Positions 17,283-26,425 of a stretch of 64,000 nt of DNA are shown here, one piece after another. Each line of letters starts with the position of its first letter. The stretch's first letter is position 1. A program made the position numbers and the translations under genes. The stretch is taken from contig CAVRWQ010000007.1 in the NCBI GenBank assembly GCA_963724955.1, positions 241,505-305,504 of the forward strand, read 5' to 3'. The DNA is from an uncultured Acidobacteriota bacterium. GTDB lineage: Bacteria; Acidobacteriota; Vicinamibacteria; Vicinamibacterales; SCN-69-37. The notes under the pieces were generated by a model. It searched no databases. It saw nothing but the letters and a program-made list of their open reading frames with translations, and was not told where the DNA came from.

Positions 17283-19705
17283 TCACTGCTTCGCCATCGC
17301 CACGCGAAGGCGTTCCTCGGGCGAGATCAGATGATTGTTGTCGTCGGCTGCGGTGCCCGGCGTCGAACTCGACCCAGTTCACCCGCCCGGTGAACTCGCT
17401 TCCGGCGCCTTGCGCGTAGTCGGGCGTCACCGGCGACCCGGCCTCGTGGCCCACGTCGCACGACTCTTCGCCGAACGCGAACGGTTCGGTTCGGGCAAGG
17501 CGGCCCTCGCCGGCTTTCTTGCCGTCCACAAAGAGCGAGACTGTGCCGCCCTTGGCAATGCCGCCGCCGTCGTACGCAAACTCCATGCGAACCTGACGTC
17601 GGCCAGGCGTGAGGTCGCTCGAACCCTCGACGTACGTCCGCTCGAGGCCAAAGAAGTTGTAACAGAACTTCGGCTTGCCGTTCTTCGCGTACAGACTCCA
17701 GCCGCCGGTCGTGCCGCCGACGGCGACGATGACGCCTTCCGCACCGGAGTCCGGCACCTCGATCTGGGCGGTGACCGCGTGCGACTTGTTCGCCATGTTC
17801 ACCATCGCCAGCGACGGCACCCGCGTCAGTCCGCCAAACACGAGTTGGCGATTCCCCGAGATCGAGCTCCGGGCGTCCCGCCATCTCCGAATCGCCGCGC
17901 TCGGCGAACCGGTCGTCGAGCGGCAGCACGTTGTATTTCACCGCTTCGATCAGCCAGAGCTGCTGCAGCTTGTGCAGGGTGTCGGGCTGTTCACTCGCCA
18001 GATCGCGCGCCTGGGACCAGTCTTTCGAGGTGTCGTACAGCTCCCAGACGTCGTCCTCGAAGGCGACGGTCTTGACCACGCCGGTGTCCCACGGCGTGCG
18101 GTGCTTGGTCACCGCCGTCCAGCCTTTGTGGTAGATGCCGCGGTTGCCGAACATCTCGAAGTACTGCGTTTCGTGGCGATCAGGAGCGGACGCCTCGTTG
18201 AACGAGTACGCCATGCTGACGCCCTCGATCGGTCGCTGCAGCACCCCGTTGACCATCGTCGGCTGCGGCAGTCCCGCCAGCTCGAGAATCGTCGGCGCCA
18301 CGTCGATCACGTGATGAAACTGGTGGCGGAGCTCATTCCTGCCTTTGATGCCCTTCGGCCAGTGGACGATGGTGCCGTTGCGCGTGCCGCCCCAGTGTGA
18401 CGCCACCTGCTTCGTCCATTGATACGGCGTGTCCATCGCATGCGCCCAGCCCACCGCGTAGTGGTTGTAGGCTTGCGGGCCGCCGAGCTCGTCGATGCGC
18501 GGGATCAGGCTGTCGGCGGTTTCCAGATGTCCGAACCCGCCGAGCGTCACCATCTCGTTGAACGTGCCCTGCAGCGAGCCCTCCGCCGAGGCGCCGTTGT
18601 CCCCGATGATCAGGTAGATCACGGTGTCGTCGAGGATCTCGAGATCGGTCAGCGCGTCGATCACGCGGCCGAGATGATGATCGGTCTGCTCCATGAACCC
18701 GGCGTAGACCTCCATCTGCCGGGTGAGCACGGGCTTCATCTTCGGATCGACGGCCTCCCAGGCCGGGATTTCCGCGTGGCGCTTGGTCAGCGCGCAGTCC
18801 CTGGGAATGACGCCGAGCGCTCTCTGGCGCATGAACGTCTCTTCACGCACGGCGTCCCAGCCCCGATCGAACTTCCCCTTGTACTTGTCAGCCCACTCCT
18901 TCGGCACGTGATGCGGCGCGTGAGTGGCGCCAGGCGCGTAGTAGACGAAGAACGGCTTGTCAGGAGTCAGCGACTTCTGCTGGCGGATCCAGCTGATGGC
19001 GTGGTCTGCGAGATCTTCGTTCAGCGTGTAGCCCTGCTCGGGCGTCCTCTTCGGCTCGACCCGCGTCGTGCCCTCGAACAAATTCGGGTAGTACTGATGC
19101 GTTTCGCCGCCGATGAAACCGTAGAAATACTGGAACCCTCCTCCGCCGGTGGGCCAGTGATCGAACGGTCCGACGGCGCTGCTTTCCCACACGGGCACTT
19201 CGTGACACTTGCCGAACTGCGCGGTGGAATAGCCGTTGAGCTTCAACGTCTCCGCGAGGGCCGCGCAGGTGTTCGGCTTCATGGAGTTCTGTCCCGGAGC
19301 GGACGTCGCGAACTCAGTGATCGCCCCCATCCCGACGGAATGATGGTTCCGCCCGCTCAGCAGCGCTGCGCGGGTCGGCGAGCACAGCGCGGTCGTGTGA
19401 AAGCGCGTGTACTTCAAGCCGCCGGCGGCCAGCTTCTCGAACGTGGGCGTCTGGCACGGTCCGCCGAATGCGGACGATGAGCCGAAGCCCGCATCGTCGA
19501 TCAGCACGACGAGGACGTTTGGCGCTCCTGGCGGCGGGCGCAGTTGGCGGATGGGCGGGTACCTGGTGTCCGGATCTCGCGCGTCGAATGTCGTGAGCGC
19601 GACCGGCGTCACATCCGGAATCGGCAGCATGTGGCGCGGGATCGTGTCGTGGCGGATCGCCTCATGGCTGCCTTTCGCCGGCTTTCCCTGGAATTTCCTC
19701 GTCAT
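17283..19705 (-). CDS. Arylsulfatase (frameshifted near the 3' end)
   Basis: LIDDAG, the CSPTRAALLSGR formylglycine motif, FGKCH and GDNG. The C-terminal LamG-like part is in other frames and ends ...RVAMAKQ*. Confidence 0.92.
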
Positions 19706-19865: not shown

Positions 19866-22458
19866 CTATTGCGCGTTGAGCGCGGCCGCCGGCGCGCCGG
19901 CCGCTGCTCGCTGTGCCGGCCACCAGGCGGCGATGAGTCCAGTCGCGACGAGCAGGGTGCACGCCGCGGCCCAGGTGAGGACGTCGAAACGCTCGACGCC
20001 GAAGATGTACGTGCGCAACAACTGCGACAGGACCGCGCCGCCGGCCAGGCCAAGCGCCATCCCGGCGCCGAGCAGGACGGCGCCCTCCCGAAGAAACATC
20101 CGCACGATCTTCCGGCCCGTGGCGCCCAACGCCACGCGAATCGCGACTTCGTGGTGACGTTGCTGCACGGTATAGGCAGTGACGCCGTAGATGCCCAGCA
20201 TCGCGAGGAACAGGGCGGCGACGGCAAACCCCGACAGCAGGAGTGTGACGAACTTCGTCCCTGCCAGCCGCTCATCGTCGCCGGCGACCAGACGCGGTTC
20301 GTTGATCACGGCCTCCGGATCGAGACCAGCGGCGACTGACCGGAGGTCCTGGATCAGCAACGGCTGCAGCCGACTCGTCCGAAGGTAGAACGTGCCGAAT
20401 CGCCCATCGGGAATCCTCGGCGTGTAGAAATCGGCGCGCTCCGGGTCGTCGTACGCCTGCCGCACATCGGCGGCGATGCCGACGACGGTGCGCCACGGAC
20501 CAGCGGCCGGTCCTGCCGGTGTCGGTTCGATGCTGCGTACGGACTGGCCGAGCGCCGGACCCTGCGGCCAGAGGCGCGCGGCCAGCGTCTCGCTGATCAC
20601 GGCGACGGGCGCCTGCGCCGACAGATCCTCGCTGGTGAACTCGCGGCCCTGTCGAATCGCGATTCCGAACACGGAGAAATAGTCTGCGCTGACGCTAATA
20701 CCGCCCGCCTTCGCGCTTCGCGCTTCGGCGGGGGCTTCGGCGGGCTGCCGCTGTCTCGACGTCCACAGTCGGCGCCAGAGCGAAGGGCGGCCAACTGCTG
20801 AAAGCGACCTTCGCTCCTGTCGAAGAGGACACGCGCGAGGCGAACTGCTCGTGGAAGCGGCGGAACGCGTTGGCCTCGGGGTAGTTCCTGGTGCGAAGCA
20901 TGATGCGAGACGTTCGCAAGCCGCCTGGATCGAATCCCAGATCGGTGTCGAACATCTGCGCGACGCTGCGGACCATGAGGCCGCAGCCGACGAGCAGCAC
21001 CAGCGAGCCGGCCACCTCGAATGCGATCAACGAGTGACGGACGCGCCGCATCGACAGGCCGTCGCTCGCGCCACGTCCGGACTGGCGCAAGGCTGTCAGC
21101 AGCGTCCGCCCCCACGACATCAGCGGCGCCAGCGACATCGCGAGCGCGATCGCAATGCCGGCGGCGCCGGCCGTCAGGATGACGGTCGTGTCCATCGCGA
21201 TGCCGGCCGCGCCCGGAGCGGGCCGGCCGAGCTGCGTTTCGATTGAAGGCGACAACGCGGCCAGCACGAACCTGGTCAACGCGAGTCCGGCGGCGACCGC
21301 AATCACGGTGACGATCGACGACTCGACCAGCAGCATCCGCGCGAGGTCGCGGCGGCTCGAGCCGAGCGCCAGCCGCACGGCGACCTCCGTCTGCCGCCGC
21401 ATCGCACGAAGCAGCATCAGGACCGCGACGTTTGCGCAGACGATCACCAGCACCAGGACGACCGCGATCGTGACGCCCACGAGCACTGGACGCAGGTGTC
21501 CGACGTAGCGCTCGTGCGCGGACTCCAGGCGGACGCCCGGCCAGTCGCCTGGAATCGGCGACGTCGCCACCTGACGTGCGGCTTCGGTGATGCGCTGCTC
21601 GGCCAACGCCGGTGACACACCCGGCCCGAGCCGCACCATGTACGCGCGAACCGGCGACGGCTCGGGCAGCAGCAGATCGACGGTGGCCCGGCTGTCGCGC
21701 CCGAAGTAGAAACCGGGCGTGAGGACGCCGGCGATGCGAAATGTCTCGGGCGATCCCGGACGCGATTCTGCTTCGCCACTGACCAGACGGCCGACGATGC
21801 CCGGGTCGGACCCGAAGCGGTCGCGCCAGAGCGCGTGTCCGACGAGCGCGACGCGCTCCGCACCAGCGCGGAAGTCGTCCTCCATCAGGCTTCGTCCGCG
21901 CGTGACTCCCACACCGAGTCCGGCGACAAAGCCCGGCCTCGCTCGCAGGACCCGCGCAGACGTCGTGCTGCCGCCTTCCGTCAGCGTCAACGTGTCGCCG
22001 CCGGCTGCGATGGCGTGCTCGACGACGTCGTTGAGCGACGTCCAGTCGAGCGCGGTCATGCCGCGCGGCTCCCACGGGCCAGGCGGCGCGTACATCACGT
22101 GATACAGCCGCCCGGCGTCCGGATACGGCAGCGATCGGATCAGATACGCGTTGACGACGGAGATGGTGGACGAGGCGAGGGCTACGCCCAGTGCGAGCGA
22201 TGCGATCGTCACCAGCGTGAAGGCCGGCGTCCTGAGGAGTCCGCGGATCGCGAAACGCACGTCGCGGACGATCGCATCGAGCCACTGCCATCCCCACACG
22301 TCGCTGGAAGCTTCACGAAGCTGCAGCGTGGGCCCGAACCGCCGAGGCTCGTCCATCATCGCGCGATGCGCCTCCATCTCCTGCTGCAGCGCCGCCTCGT
22401 TCCGCCGGCGGTTGAGCAGGTAGGCGATCCGGCGGATCCATTCGGCCAGCTGTCTCAT
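19866..22458 (-). CDS. Acidobacterial duplicated orphan ABC permease (ADOP, MacB/FtsX-like), one frameshift at ~20745
   Basis: DVRFAIRGLLRTPAF, IVCANVA, EVAVRLALG, DLGFDP, GIYGV...EVAIRVALGA and PAQRAA. Confidence 0.92.
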
Positions 22459-22488: not shown

Positions 22489-22818
22489 TCAGGCGGTGTC
22501 GAGCACCGCGTCGATGGCGGCCGTGACCCGCTGGTAGTTCGCGCGCTCGCGCTCGAGCTGCTGCCGGCCGCTCGGCGTCAGCCGGTACTCGCGCACCGCC
22601 CGGCCGGTCTCGGACACCGCCGGCGCGGCCTTGACCCATCCCTTGAGGAGGAGCTTCTGCAACGCGGGATACAGGGATCCCTCCTCGACGCTCAGTTCTT
22701 CGCGCGAGAGGGCATGGATGCGCTGGGCGATCGCGTAGCCGTGGAGCGGCTGCGCGGCGAGGACGCGGAGGATGAGCATGATCAGCGTGCCCGGCGGCAG
22801 ACCGTCGTCACGAGGCAT
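22489..22818 (-). CDS. PadR-family regulator (acidobacterial type)
   Basis: GTLIMLIL...LHGYAIAQRI...VEEGSLYPAL...YRLT, directly upstream of the ADOP gene. Confidence 0.95.
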   Translation of the reverse strand: MPRDDGLPPGTLIMLILRVLAAQPLHGYAIAQRIHALSREELSVEEGSLYPALQKLLLKGWVKAAPAVSETGRAVREYRLTPSGRQQLERERANYQRVTAAIDAVLDTA

Positions 22819-22833
22819 AGTTTAACTATGCCT
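22813..22833. promoter_or_regulatory. Probable PadR operator
   Basis: Perfect palindrome AGGCATAGTT-T-AACTATGCCT overlapping the padR start codon. Confidence 0.7.
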
Positions 22834-22916
22834 AGTCTCTCCCAGGAGAGCGTCGCGTGTCAATTCGCGTGCGGAGGAGTGCGGCGTGCGAGGGAGTGCG
22901 GGTGCGAAGGGGCGCG

Positions 22917-24210
22917 TCATTTGATCGAGATCAACGCGTCGGCCAGTCGATCGAGATCATCACGCCGTCGAGTAGACGTAGGCCGAGGCCCGGGCCGCCG
23001 CGGCCACACCGAATCGCTTCAGGAGCGGCAGCGCGGCCATGTCGCCCGCCCGGACGGCGATCCCCTGCTGATCGAGGAACTTCGCGATCGCCGCCGGTGA
23101 CTGCCCTTCCATCACGAACGTGAACACGGGGATCCGGTTCTCTACCCTCCTGGGACCAATCAGCCGCAATCGAGGAATCTCGTCGAGGCGCGCGAGACCG
23201 TAACGCACGAGATCCTCGTCGTGCTTCCACAGCGCGTCCCGCCCCAGGGCGTCGATGAACGACACGGCCGCCGCGAGGCCGACGGGCCCGGCGACATCCG
23301 GCGTGCCGGCCTGGAACTTCTGCGCGCCATGCTCGAGCGTCGCCCGCTCGAAGTCCACGTCATGTGCCATGTTGCTGCCCACGTGGTACGGAGGCATCGC
23401 TTCCAGAAGTTCCTGCCGGCCCCAGACGATACCGGTCGCCATCGGTCCGAGCATCTTGTGGCCCGAGAACACGTAGAAATCACATCCGAGGTCCTGAACG
23501 TCGATGGCGACGTGCGGCGCGGCCTGCGCGCCGTCGATCAGCACGCGAGCCCCCGCCTGTCGCGCCATCGCGCACATCTCTTTGGCGGGGTTGATGAATC
23601 CGAGGACGTTGGACACGTGGCTGAAGGCGACGAGTCGCGTCCGCGATGACAGCATCCGCTGGAGCTCGTCCAGTCGCGGTCTTCCGTCATCGTCGACGCT
23701 CAGGATACGGACCGCGGCGCCGGCGGTCCGAGCCGCGCGAGTCCACGGCATCACGTTCGAGTTGTGCTCGGCGACCGTCAGGACGATCTCGTCACCGGCC
23801 CGCACGTTGGCGGCGGCCCAGGTGCTCGCCACGAGGTTGATGCCTTCGGTCGTCCCCCGTACGAACACGACTTCACTCGGCCTGGCTGCGTTGATGAATC
23901 GGGCGATGGTCTGGCGTGCCGCGCTCAGCCGCTGGGCGGCGCGGCTGGCCAGCATGTGCACCGGCGACGGATTCGCGTTGTCCGTCGAGTAGAAATCGAC
24001 GAGCGCGTCGATCACCGACTGGGGACGAAGCGTCGTGGCGGCGCTGTCGAGATAGGTCAGCGGATGGCCGTTGACGCGCTGGCGCAGCGCCGGAAAAGCC
24101 GTCGTCCAGGCTTCAGATGCGGACCGTTCCAGTTTGGACGGATTCTGGCTGACGACGACCGCGCCGCCGGCAGCGCATGTCGAGAGGAACCGCCGTCGAG
24201 TGCAATGCAT
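22917..24210 (-). CDS. SufS-like class V PLP enzyme with Tat signal, lacking the catalytic Cys (frameshift in the last ~15 codons)
   Basis: TRRRFL signal, YLDSAATT, EHNSN, DGAQ and SGHKMLGP (PLP Lys). RAGDMAA replaces RxGHHCA. Confidence 0.88.
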
Positions 24211-24238
24211 GTGATCTCCTCCACCGCGCTCGCGCCCG

Positions 24239-25336
24239 TCACCGATGACGACCCTTCTTCGACGTTCTGCGTGAGGCGAGGACGCGGGGCCCCGCCGGGC
24301 GCGCTGACCGTTCGAACGCGCGATAGAGCGACTCGAACAGCGCCATCCCGTGGGTCAGCAGCGTGTCATCGTCGTCATGCGCGAGCTGGAGGCCGTCGAT
24401 GAGGCTTCCCACGGTCGCGGCCTCGGGCGCGCCGTAGCGCGCATCCTTGAGATCGAGGTCGTGGACGATCGCGGCCAGCCGTGCGACCGGGGTTGAATGA
24501 ATGCCAAACACCGTGCACAAGGTCTCGAACGTGCACCCCTCGCCCTGATGCGTGAGCTCGACGCCGAACATGTCGAAAGGCACCGCGTCCGGCGGTACCT
24601 GTGCGCGATCGCTCGCAAAGCCAAAGCGCGCGTCAGCGTCGATGAACCGCCGAATCAGCCAGGCTGACGCCATGCGATCGACGCCGGGCCGCGGCCGCGT
24701 CACCCACAACCGCGCCTTGAACGATGCCGGGGCGTCCTTCGCGGATGCCGGCCGGGCGCGCTGCCCTGAGCCGCGGCCACGCTCCTCGATCCGCCGCAGC
24801 AGCTCGACGACACGATCGCGGCCGGCGCTGCCGAAAAAGTCGATCTGCTCGGCTGCGCTGAGACGCTCCGTCAGTTGCTGTGCGTCGCGCCGGGACGGCG
24901 TGCGCTTCGTCGAACGGCGGCCGGCGGTCAGGCCCTGCAGGATTCGCTCGGCTTCGCGCGCGAGCTCTGCGTAGGTCTCTTCTCGCGTGCGTCGAAACTC
25001 CTCGACGAGCGCGTCATGGGCCCACGTGTCGACCGTCTCGGCGACGAAGACGCTCGCCTGGCCACCCGCGCCCTCGATTTCCGTCTTGAGCCACTCGAAG
25101 TCCTCGCGCGCGTTCGCAGAATCCGGCAGCGCGTACACGGCCTGCTTCACGGCGAGCGCGCCGATCTGCTGCAGCCGGCGCCAGGTGCGGACGCGGAGGT
25201 TGGACGGGTGGGACGGCAGTTGATGAACGAGGAGCAGCCAGCCCCGCGCTTTCGACCCCGGGCGCGGCCCGGGTTTGGGTTCCGGCAGGGCGACTGCCGG
25301 TGCGCGCCGCGCGGGTTGCCGGGTCATCGTGTTCAT
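24239..25336 (-). CDS. chrB: Chromate-resistance regulator ChrB (ChrB_N plus ChrB_C domains)
   Basis: WLLLVHQLP...RVRTWRRL, IDFF, WVTRPRPGVDRMASAWLIRRFID, PFD and CTFE. Confidence 0.9.
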   Translation of the reverse strand: MNTMTRQPARRAPAVALPEPKPGPRPGSKARGWLLLVHQLPSHPSNLRVRTWRRLQQIGALAVKQAVYALPDSANAREDFEWLKTEIEGAGGQASVFVAETVDTWAHDALVEEFRRTREETYAELAREAERILQGLTAGRRSTKRTPSRRDAQQLTERLSAAEQIDFFGSAGRDRVVELLRRIEERGRGSGQRARPASAKDAPASFKARLWVTRPRPGVDRMASAWLIRRFIDADARFGFASDRAQVPPDAVPFDMFGVELTHQGEGCTFETLCTVFGIHSTPVARLAAIVHDLDLKDARYGAPEAATVGSLIDGLQLAHDDDDTLLTHGMALFESLYRAFERSARPAGPRVLASRRTSKKGRHR

Positions 25337-25358
25337 TGTAACAGATGTTACAGTGAAC
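25331..25358. promoter_or_regulatory. Probable ChrB operator
   Basis: AT-rich inverted repeat GTTCA-T-TGTAACA-GA-TGTTACA-G-TGAAC overlapping the chrB ATG. Confidence 0.75.
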
Positions 25359-25375
25359 TGTCATTCCGTTTCAGG

Positions 25376-25561
25376 CTACCGCCAGATCGGCCCGCCGTAG
25401 ATCGTGCCCGGGCCCCAGGGGCCGTAGCCCTGATAGCCGCCGTAGGGGTACCCGACACTGACACCGACGCCGACGGTCGTGCCCTCACAGCTGCTGGTCA
25501 ACGCCGCGGCGGCAGCAATCAGAATCACCGCCAACAGACGACCGATGAATCGCGATCTCAT
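25376..25561 (-). CDS. Small Gly/Tyr/Pro-rich lipoprotein
   Basis: Lipobox-like LTSSC after a hydrophobic stretch, with a GVGVSVGYPYGG tail. Confidence 0.7.
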   Translation of the reverse strand: MRSRFIGRLLAVILIAAAAALTSSCEGTTVGVGVSVGYPYGGYQGYGPWGPGTIYGGPIWR

Positions 25562-25570
25562 CTCTGGCTC

Positions 25571-26425
25571 CTAGAAAGGAAACTTCTGAAGCGCGATGAT
25601 CGCGCCCGAGGGATCGGTGACGACGGCCACGCTCCCTTTACGAATCTCGGCGCGCGGCTCGAGCAGCACCGTGCCGCCGCGCGATCGCGCTCGCGCGGCC
25701 ATGACCGCCGGGTCGGACACGAGCAGGTACGGCAGCCAGGTCGGCCGCATCTCCGGCTTGGGCGCCGGCAGGATGCCCGCACGCGCACGTCCACGTGACA
25801 GGACGACGTACTCGCCCCCGCCCGATCGCTCCGTCACCTCTCGTTGATAGCCAAACGTACTGGTGTAGAACGTCGACGCGGCCGCCGCGTCGCGCGCGAG
25901 GTATCCATCCAGAAGAATCGGCCTTCGGTCGGCGCCACCTCGTCGGGGGGATCGCCGCCGCTCAGCCGCAGCACACCAAAGGGCGCGCCCTGTGGATCGC
26001 TCACCACCGCGGCGCGGCCTGCCGACTCGACGTCCACAGGAGCGACCAGGGTGCGGCCGCCTGCCTTTTCAACGGCGGCCACTGCCGCGTCGACACTGGC
26101 CACCGACTGATAGCCAATCCACTGCGATACTTCCTGGCCGGCGATCGCATCAACCGCGACCAGACCGGCCACCGGACGGCCCTGATGGCGCGCGATGACG
26201 TACGGCCGTCCCAGGCGCGTGGCGTCGGTAAACGTCCATCCGAACAGCTCCCCGTAGAAGCTCCGGGCCGCCGCGAGATCGTCCGTGACCAGGTCGTGCC
26301 ACACGAACTTGCCGAGCGTGTCAGCCGCGACGGCGCCTGGCGTTGCGACCGGCGCGCGTCGCGCTTGGAGTGCACGCGGCGGCCAGCATCAAGCCGGCTG
26401 CGAGAACAGAGGCGATCGATCGCAC
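25571..26425 (-). CDS. VOC/glyoxalase-family two-domain lipoprotein (frameshifted)
   Basis: GGAGG then GTG at 26425, LAAAC lipobox, GKFVWHDLVTDD...FYGELFGW, DPQGA, WLPY and DPSGA. Confidence 0.85.

Follow-up and report, generated by a model that had tools for sequence, protein, structure and literature searches.

What would a regulator of chromate-sensor type control in an assembly in which no chrA is found, and to what end would it be coupled to a relative of SufS that has lost its cysteine? This question is raised by two adjacent minus-strand genes, one chrB-like and one SufS-like, in a 64,000-nucleotide window of CAVRWQ010000007.1 (the whole stretch of DNA that was analyzed, to which coordinates refer), part of an assembly of 6,502,557 bases in 13 contigs with a marker completeness of 55%. 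SufS is a cytoplasmic sulfur donor for iron-sulfur clusters; a clade that lost the persulfide cysteine, gained an export signal, and came under a chromate-sensor-type regulator would have changed both function and compartment. An earlier note on this DNA had described the chrB gene, a palindrome, and the Cys-less SufS-like gene and had proposed an oxyanion-inducible, detoxifying periplasmic C-S or C-Se lyase. Its sequence observations were confirmed when motifs, coordinates, and domains were rechecked, and its interpretation is partly supported: the coupling, the cysteine loss, and the export signal stand, and the substrate, the inducer, and the detoxifying role are retained as proposals. The reading that we favor, with a probability of roughly 55%, is that the two genes form a probably leaderless operon under ChrB repression and that its enzyme leaves the cytoplasm through the twin-arginine translocation (Tat) system and performs cysteine-independent pyridoxal 5′-phosphate (PLP) chemistry, most likely as a C-S or C-Se lyase, the chemistry and the inducer being those that we infer from the sequences. 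The conservation of the operator, the clade that the regulator shares with a chrA-linked relative, the wider regulon, and a 3′ frameshift are new relative to the earlier note.

The SufS-like enzyme, its lost cysteine, and its predicted export signal

22960..24210, minus strand: SufS-clade PLP enzyme gene as assembled (416 residues, K252, RAGDMAA for RxGHHCA)
23032..23052, minus strand: codons for RAGDMAA, the former cysteine loop (R387-A393), from the sequence and from homologue and structure-profile alignments
23455-23457, minus strand: PLP lysine K252 in SGHK, from the sequence
24106..24210, minus strand: N-terminal extension of ~35 residues that SufS lacks, bearing a twin-arginine signal (TRRRFLSTCAAGG...), from TIGR01409 and homologues
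22917..22965, minus strand: one-base frameshift (22965), then the out-of-frame conserved tail RDDLDRLADALISIK and a stop (22917-22919), from homologue C termini

The open reading frame (ORF) at 22960-24210 encodes a protein that starts with MHCTRRRFLSTCAAGG and belongs to the class V aminotransferase fold, as established by its match to Pfam Aminotran_5 (9.5e-121). The TRRRFL leader, the SGHK lysine, and the RAGDMAA motif reported previously are all present in its sequence. Its score with the SufS model TIGR01979 (444.7 bits against a cut-off of 475.1) is below the family threshold, which may be explained in part by 15 absent C-terminal residues. Solved SufS structures match the enzyme profile at positions 36-429 (E 4e-129), with HHC aligned to DMA. 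The enzyme has the same fold as, and falls in the same clade with, SufS/CsdB of E. coli and B. subtilis, and it keeps the SGHK lysine, EH..N, DGAQ, and the C-terminal RAS arginine. In contrast to SufS, it carries RAGDMAA for RxGHHCA, so that neither the persulfide cysteine nor either histidine is present; EHHAN is replaced by EH[NSAY]SN, a 35-residue Tat-type extension is added, and suf neighbors are missing. The absence of suf genes from the window, as noted earlier, was borne out, since SufB, SufD, and a true SufS (599.6 bits) are all encoded on contig C5; no search was made for SufE or SufU.

The RxGHHCA loop, tabulated as the type II desulfurase consensus in PMC8300815, was absent from the window enzyme, from all 120 listed homologues (71-100% identity, mostly 427-432 residues), and from all 28 acidobacterial loci taken from a species collection. 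These 28 loci represent species-level genomes with the enzyme, nearly all labeled Acidobacteriota, Vicinamibacterales, or Vicinamibacteria; L029, a nanohaloarchaeal locus of 41% identity without the DMA motif, was left out of all counts. Each of the 120 homologues carries R[AI]GD[ML]AA and each of the 28 loci a DMA-type motif, so the loss is clade-wide. Because the motif is conserved in every listed homologue, RAGDMAA is genuine and not the local indel artefact that the earlier note had feared. Among representatives chosen at one per 50% identity, D[ML]A forms are few (P0124, P0126, and P0131), and the next matches beyond them are Cys-bearing SufS or long desulfurases of the encapsulin-cargo type (45-49% identity), the nearest representatives outside the DMA clade being of the latter, long-N-terminus type. 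By E value, the family 2A encapsulin cargo cysteine desulfurase is in fact the best NCBIfam match (NF041166, 1.2e-144), but the match scores 483.8 where the cut-off is 800, and of the 623 profile positions it covers only 229-609. The window enzyme has no N-terminal cargo domain, and HHC is retained in the cargo enzymes. When 46 catalytic domains were placed in a quick tree, DMA forms made up a single clade (SH-aLRT 93) nested in Cys-bearing type II SufS. Since the motif is invariant and its bearers form one clade inside Cys-bearing SufS, these comparisons indicate that the cysteine was lost in one old event kept by selection. The PLP-, pyridine-nitrogen-, and carboxylate-binding positions are retained across the homologues.

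The SufS-like ORF of the window terminates 15 codons early. The neighboring frame encodes RDDLDRLADALISIK, with its stop at 22917, and corresponds to the homologue tail YSTRxDIDRLADAL (present in 107 of the 120); deleting one base at 22965 yields 430 residues, the family median. A premature stop caused by a one-base frameshift is what a decaying gene or an assembly artefact would display, and together with the cysteine loss it could be taken to mark a pseudogene. We consider this very improbable, as DMA is invariant in the 120 homologues at 71-83% identity, the PLP and substrate residues are retained, and a soil short-read contig from a close relative (run X1, 151 bases, 6 other differences) lacks the base at 22965. 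Moreover, the assembly seems to be prone to indels, consistent with 55% marker completeness at 6.5 Mb: tatC is broken over three frames (G000:C8:331643-332266), an ADOP permease gene is in two pieces (20695-22458 and 19866-20672), and a sulfatase-like ORF (CSPTR motif) turns to nonsense after ~560 residues. The frameshift at 22965 is probably an assembly error or, less probably, a real lesion of the strain. In soil-metagenome runs, the stretch is present in small shares (<=0.15) of contigs; five such contigs are identical to parts of the two genes, position 22965 lying outside all five, and no RNA run was among the listed sequencing runs that contain the stretch.

At the N terminus, the first 44 residues score 22.7 bits with TIGR01409, a curated Tat-signal model with a cut-off of 16.7, in agreement with the Tat-type leader that the earlier note had recognized. 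RRxF[LMFV] occurs in the first 45 residues of 115 of the 120 homologues, and the sequence after a conserved RRxFLSTCAA varies freely for about 20 residues, as it does in signal peptides. The extension is absent from SufS, the solved structures of which align only from profile position 36. TatC is encoded in the same genome, on contig C8. In relatives L011, L012, and L015, the SufS-like gene lies downstream, on the same strand, of a gene of a family that we call c5, whose start is a hydrophobic stretch resembling a Sec-type signal by eye. Taken together, these features suggest that the enzyme is probably exported by Tat; PLP enzymes with their cofactor are known Tat cargo, according to PMC13673990.

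The competing view is that RRxFL is no functional signal and that the enzyme stays in the cytoplasm, for example, as a selenocysteine lyase or a cysteine sulfinate desulfinase. The hydrophobic part of the signal is indeed short, no clear conserved AxA cleavage site was seen by eye, and the RR motif is missing from 5 of the 120 homologues, 4 of which are short forms (400-403 residues) without any N-terminal extension. In addition, a Cys-less SufS keeps selenocysteine lyase activity in the cytoplasm, SufS(C364A) having been used as such a lyase (PMC10778597). Nonetheless, a TIGR01409 score above the cut-off, an RRxF motif kept while the following 20 residues drift, an extension not found in SufS, and the position behind c5 in three loci make a cytoplasmic enzyme decidedly unlikely. 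A conserved cysteine (Cys12) was also considered as a site of lipid attachment and was rejected under the lipobox rule, as it stands 6 residues after RR and is preceded by Thr at position -1.

The ChrB-like regulator and its presumed operator

24239..25336, minus strand: chrB-like regulator gene (Pfam ChrB_N and ChrB_C; 365 residues from the first ATG)
25331..25358, no strand: imperfect 28-bp palindrome, presumed ChrB-like operator, with the core TGTAAC-N4-GTTACA at 25337-25352
25335..25364, minus strand: sigma-70-like promoter ATGACA-18-TACAAT with a TG extension, its spacer and -10 overlapped by the operator
24211..24238, minus strand: 28-nucleotide spacer with a GGAGGAG ribosome-binding site and no terminator-like site between the genes

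The identification of the upstream gene as chrB was upheld by matches of ORF 24239-25336 to both Pfam domains (ChrB_C, 1.8e-42; ChrB_N, 3.8e-12), and the SufS-like gene does follow it after 28 nucleotides. The palindrome at 25331-25358 reads GTTCACTGTAACATCTGTTACAATGAAC and, as previously described, spans the first ATG of chrB (25336). Its arms match at 12 of 13 positions around a perfect 7+7 core, TGTAACA-TC-TGTTACA. The promoter (25364-25335) is the only promoter-like site in 22700-25600 and agrees with the consensus at 10 of 12 positions (shuffle mean, 0.3). An inverted repeat thus overlaps the promoter of its own operon, and the placement of the operator over the spacer and the -10 element is, as judged from the sequence, the geometry of a repressor. 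Because the first ATG overlaps the -10 element and a second ATG (25327, Met4, 362 residues) lies 7 nucleotides beyond it, the true start of the chrB-like gene is likely to be 25327, on a leaderless mRNA. A similar arrangement, TTGACA-18-TACAnT followed by ATG after 6-7 nucleotides, is found upstream of the SufS-like gene in L004, L008, L017, and L028.

Allowing at most one mismatch, TGTAAC-N4-GTTACA occurs once in the 6,502,557-base genome. The 28 related loci (324,702 bases) contain 13 perfect copies of the core and 25 when one mismatch is tolerated, compared to means of 0 and 0.03, respectively, in thirty dinucleotide shuffles. In relatives, the core is conserved upstream of SufS-like, chrB-like, c5, and major facilitator superfamily (MFS) genes. 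This gives a concrete operator consensus for one branch of the ChrB regulators. According to the mechanism that we propose, the ChrB-family regulator would bind TGTAAC-N4-GTTACA, probably as a dimer, and, since this palindrome covers the spacer and the -10 element of the promoter from which the regulator itself is transcribed, would repress a probably leaderless chrB-like/SufS-like transcript until a chromate-type oxyanion effector binds its C-terminal domain. As a side observation, the 9-mer GTAACATCT (25341-25349) is common to the operator and to the chr inverted repeat of O. tritici given in PMC3817168; this sharing may reflect chance or a conserved half-site.

Plasmid ChrBs adjoining chrA share 39-43% identity with the regulator over 85-92% of its length. 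A tree of 27 acidobacterial ChrB-like proteins groups the regulator with that of L042 (support 92/90), whose gene is directly followed by chrA and preceded by an operator with one mismatch. The description of the locus as a ChrB without chrA therefore holds for the genome, as no match to PF02417 (ChrA) was found by profile search in the entire assembly, at its 55% marker completeness, but not for the clade, the same branch of regulators being chrA-linked in L042. The only Fe/Mn superoxide dismutase (ChrC-type) of the genome is encoded on contig C5, in accordance with the reported lack of chrC from the window. Because its clade-mate is chrA-linked, the window regulator appears by sequence to be an ordinary ChrB rather than a divergent one. 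More broadly, regulators linked to SufS-like genes are found in both deep ChrB clades, interleaved with chrA-linked ones, and in a sample of 40 relatives ChrA was detected in 16, ChrB_C in 9, and canonical chrB-chrA pairs in six.

Six residues (R45, R50, R211, R218, H260, and H289) are invariant in 30 ChrB-like sequences, and their spacings (5, 7, 42, 29) equal those of R18, R23, R180, R187, H229, and H258 of O. tritici ChrB, a mapping based on spacing and on Pannonibacter ChrB rather than on alignment of the O. tritici protein. Chromate induction is lost in the R180A, R187A, and H229A variants of the O. tritici protein, and H258A makes expression constitutive (PMC3817168). The O. tritici TnOtChr regulator resembles that of the window in its two Pfam domains and its Arg/His spacing; it controls chrBACF, whereas the window regulator would control a SufS-like gene in a chrA-less genome.

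An AlphaFold2 model of the regulator (24242-25327; predicted local distance difference test [pLDDT] score, 85.4) comprises a Cas2-like beta-alpha-beta-beta-alpha-beta domain (residues 30-96), a helical linker, and an alpha/beta C-terminal domain. With Foldseek, PaaX was the best whole match (E 2.6e-3), and Cas2-like folds matched residues ~30-96. The N-terminal domain of ChrB looks like a ferredoxin unit of the Cas2 type, similar to the central part of PaaX, with no obvious winged helix. For residues 201-345, the best VIA match was 6mtz_B, an uncharacterized H. pylori protein (Z 11.9, root mean square deviation 3.5, 138 aligned). No rhodanese appeared among the best 50 VIA matches, a result that neither supports nor excludes the “rhodanese-like” label of the 2013 paper, and sequence search identified no ChrB relative of solved structure.

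Linkage and regulon in related genomes

In 21 of the 28 loci, the operator sits where it could govern transcription of the SufS-like unit, and some of these loci have no chrB nearby. In 14 of the 21, the site immediately precedes the SufS-like gene; in 4, it separates a divergent chrB-like gene from a c5/SufS-like pair; in 2, it stands ahead of chrB-like and SufS-like genes paired as they are in the window; and in 1, it stands ahead of an ADOP-permease gene paired with the SufS-like gene. A chrB-like gene is present within 6 kb of the SufS-like gene in 18 loci. The linkage of homologues to chrB, which the earlier note had suggested checking, is therefore established in most loci on both counts. 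None of the three findings named there as contrary to its proposal was made, i.e., an indel artefact behind RAGDMAA, a cytoplasmic protein, or a lack of linkage to chrB, localization being judged from the predicted signal.

In the relatives, the ChrB regulon also includes the exported c5 protein and an MFS transporter. ChrB regulators thus probably control more than chrA, extending to an exported enzyme, the c5 family, and an MFS transporter. The transporter of the regulon matches MFS_3 (2.5e-13) and, well under the cut-off, CntE-type opine exporters (~1e-14 to 1e-16). In five genomes, the operator stands at the SufS-like gene with no chrB-like gene within 6 kb; ChrB_C is encoded elsewhere in 4 of these, and all 4 distant genes have an operator-like site upstream, with 1 mismatch in three and 2 in L055. 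The distant ChrB_C gene diverges from c5 in both L053 and L054, with an MFS gene following in L054.

The c5 proteins form an exported family of about 245 residues (e.g., L012:5188-5925, L043:5377-6126, and G000:C5:1287-2006) that had no match among Pfam or NCBIfam families and was represented in Atlas only by unnamed Acidobacteriota clusters. Their conserved stretches are FNPCQNGG and HEHGTDSGCGDNNWPK, and they are abundant in soil metagenomes (1399 matches). In some loci, a c5 gene immediately precedes the SufS-like gene; in L043, it comes right behind chrA, and in L053 and L054, it diverges from a chrB-like gene. In addition, 5 of 120 listed c5 homologues are longer and are fused or merged with an LMWPc/arsenate-reductase domain. 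In the genome of the window, c5 is on another contig, with no operator site of at most one mismatch anywhere near.

Possible chemistry and role

We propose that the enzyme is a type II SufS derivative that has kept the PLP- and alpha-amino-acid-binding residues, exchanged HHC for DMA, and gained a twin-arginine signal, and that, once folded around PLP in the cytoplasm, it would pass through Tat and function in the periplasm. No enzyme persulfide is possible, and it therefore could not act as a cysteine desulfurase; the most likely chemistry would be a cysteine-independent beta-elimination or chalcogen elimination. In an oxidizing periplasm, the enzyme could plausibly act on amino acids of the cystine or seleno type, the candidates being cystine, selenocysteine, or a related sulfur or selenium amino acid. 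A functional model is offered by C-DES of Synechocystis, a NifS/SufS-like PLP enzyme without an active-site cysteine that yields pyruvate and ammonia and gives off the sulfur as sulfide or as product-bound persulfide (PMC8300815). SufS(C364A), with its use as a selenocysteine lyase, is a second precedent for chemistry of this fold that needs no cysteine. C-DES is only a functional model: unlike the predicted location of the window enzyme, that of C-DES is cytoplasmic, and C-DES is probably not a close relative and was absent among the best 60 PDB matches; no link of C-DES to ChrB turned up, although no search aimed at one was made. Literature searches found no publication coupling chrB with a cysteine desulfurase and nothing on a periplasmic or secreted cysteine desulfurase, desulfhydrase, or lyase; a search combining twin-arginine and periplasmic cysteine desulfurase returned no title of relevance.

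Several points weigh against this reading, in addition to the short hydrophobic region, the missing AxA site and RR motifs, and the frameshifted window copy described above. The Asp of DMA indicates no particular substrate, and Cys-less class V enzymes of quite different chemistry (UstD and FGM3) are among the PDB matches. The AlphaFold2 model of the enzyme, built from 21 close homologues, was poor (pLDDT 65.7, below 50 in the region of the cysteine loop) and was discarded. No operator with at most one mismatch is present in 7 of the 28 loci (L003, L007, L016, L018, L019, L021, and L027); 4 of these have a chrB-like gene of the other deep clade, each in a region with another short inverted repeat. 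Ten loci have no chrB-like gene within 6 kb, and for one operator-bearing locus (L023), no ChrB_C was found in its genome (G042). The linkage counts come from related, non-independent genomes, and the enzyme was found in none of the 40 sampled relatives from the family or order of the window genome; it is a patchy accessory gene. Finally, activity, export, and induction are predictions from sequence, and the same applies to repression, the leaderless start, the identity of the effector, the substrate and products, and a detoxifying role.

The known Tat-exported PLP enzymes suggest a different function. In PMC13673990, PvdN and PtaA are described as enzymes of pyoverdine maturation that are exported with the cofactor bound, and tailoring is the function of those Tat-exported PLP enzymes that are known to date. 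By analogy, the SufS-like enzyme could modify a secreted metallophore or amino-acid-bearing metabolite in the periplasm after its export by the MFS transporter, with no sulfur chemistry. The transporter of the regulon resembles efflux and metallophore exporters (MFS_3, CntE-type), a Cys-less class V enzyme with C-C chemistry (UstD) is among the PDB matches, and PvdN is a weak NCBIfam match (6.4e-20). However, the PvdN score is 71 bits, against a cut-off of 650 and against 444.7 bits for the far closer SufS, and the RASAY context of the substrate-carboxylate arginine of SufS is retained. PvdN and PtaA also differ in acting on siderophore side chains and in having no ChrB control. No biosynthetic genes, such as those for nonribosomal peptide synthetases, were seen in the loci examined, and the operon of the window stands alone with the only operator of the genome, no search for an MFS gene having been made there. 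We therefore regard a tailoring function as unlikely, and return to the C-S or C-Se lyase as the preferred reading.

Such a lyase could serve nutrition or defense. Chromate is an analogue of sulfate, and cystine is the form in which cysteine is expected outside the cell. The regulator might thus sense a lack of sulfate, or an analogue of it, and the enzyme might draw on organosulfur amino acids outside the cell as a source of sulfur, pyruvate, and ammonia, a possibility for which the sulfatase-like gene 3 kb downstream (17327-19705, CSPTR motif) also speaks. Between this sulfatase gene and the operon lies a PadR-ADOP unit that has a palindrome of its own, and the same ChrB clade and operator are found at chrA in L042. 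The chrA linkage of c5 in L043 and its arsenate-reductase fusions in 5 of 120 homologues likewise point to oxyanion stress rather than to nutrition, so that scavenging seems improbable. Because of its ChrB control, the chrA-linked clade-mate of the regulator, and the association with c5, we would place the enzyme in an oxyanion-stress response.

A more specific and rather doubtful proposal is that ChrB regulons encode a second, efflux-independent defense against chromate or other oxyanions in soil Acidobacteriota. Using cystine-type amino acids outside the cytoplasm, the Tat-exported, Cys-less descendant of SufS would release persulfide, sulfide, or selenide. Reduction or precipitation of Cr(VI), or of selenite, tellurite, or arsenic species, would then take place in the periplasm, ahead of entry into the cell, and c5 (cysteine/histidine-rich) and the MFS transporter would work alongside the enzyme. 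If the enzyme does make a reductant outside the cytoplasm, a dominant, poorly cultured group of soil bacteria would possess a new type of oxyanion resistance, with relevance, if true, to the cycling of chromium, selenium, and arsenic.

Some further features were observed around these genes. An ornithine cyclodeaminase/mu-crystallin gene lies between chrB and chrA in two relatives (L043:3197-4228, 2.4e-58; L044:3291-4310, 3.5e-60). Just upstream of the chrB-like promoter in the window, a 61-residue ORF (25376-25561) without a family match has a lipoprotein-like start (…ALTSSC…) and a Gly/Tyr/Pro-rich tail. ADOP genes recur near the system: an exact operator precedes one that abuts the SufS-like gene in L005 (3569-6004), another is divergent from a chrB-like gene in L047 (685-4168), and that of the window lies downstream of the operon, behind PadR. 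This PadR gene (22489-22818) precedes the ADOP-type permease and bears a perfect 10-1-10 palindrome, AGGCATAGTTAAACTATGCCT (22813-22833), over its ATG (22818), the same palindrome-over-start layout as at chrB, which suggests another autoregulated, possibly leaderless unit.

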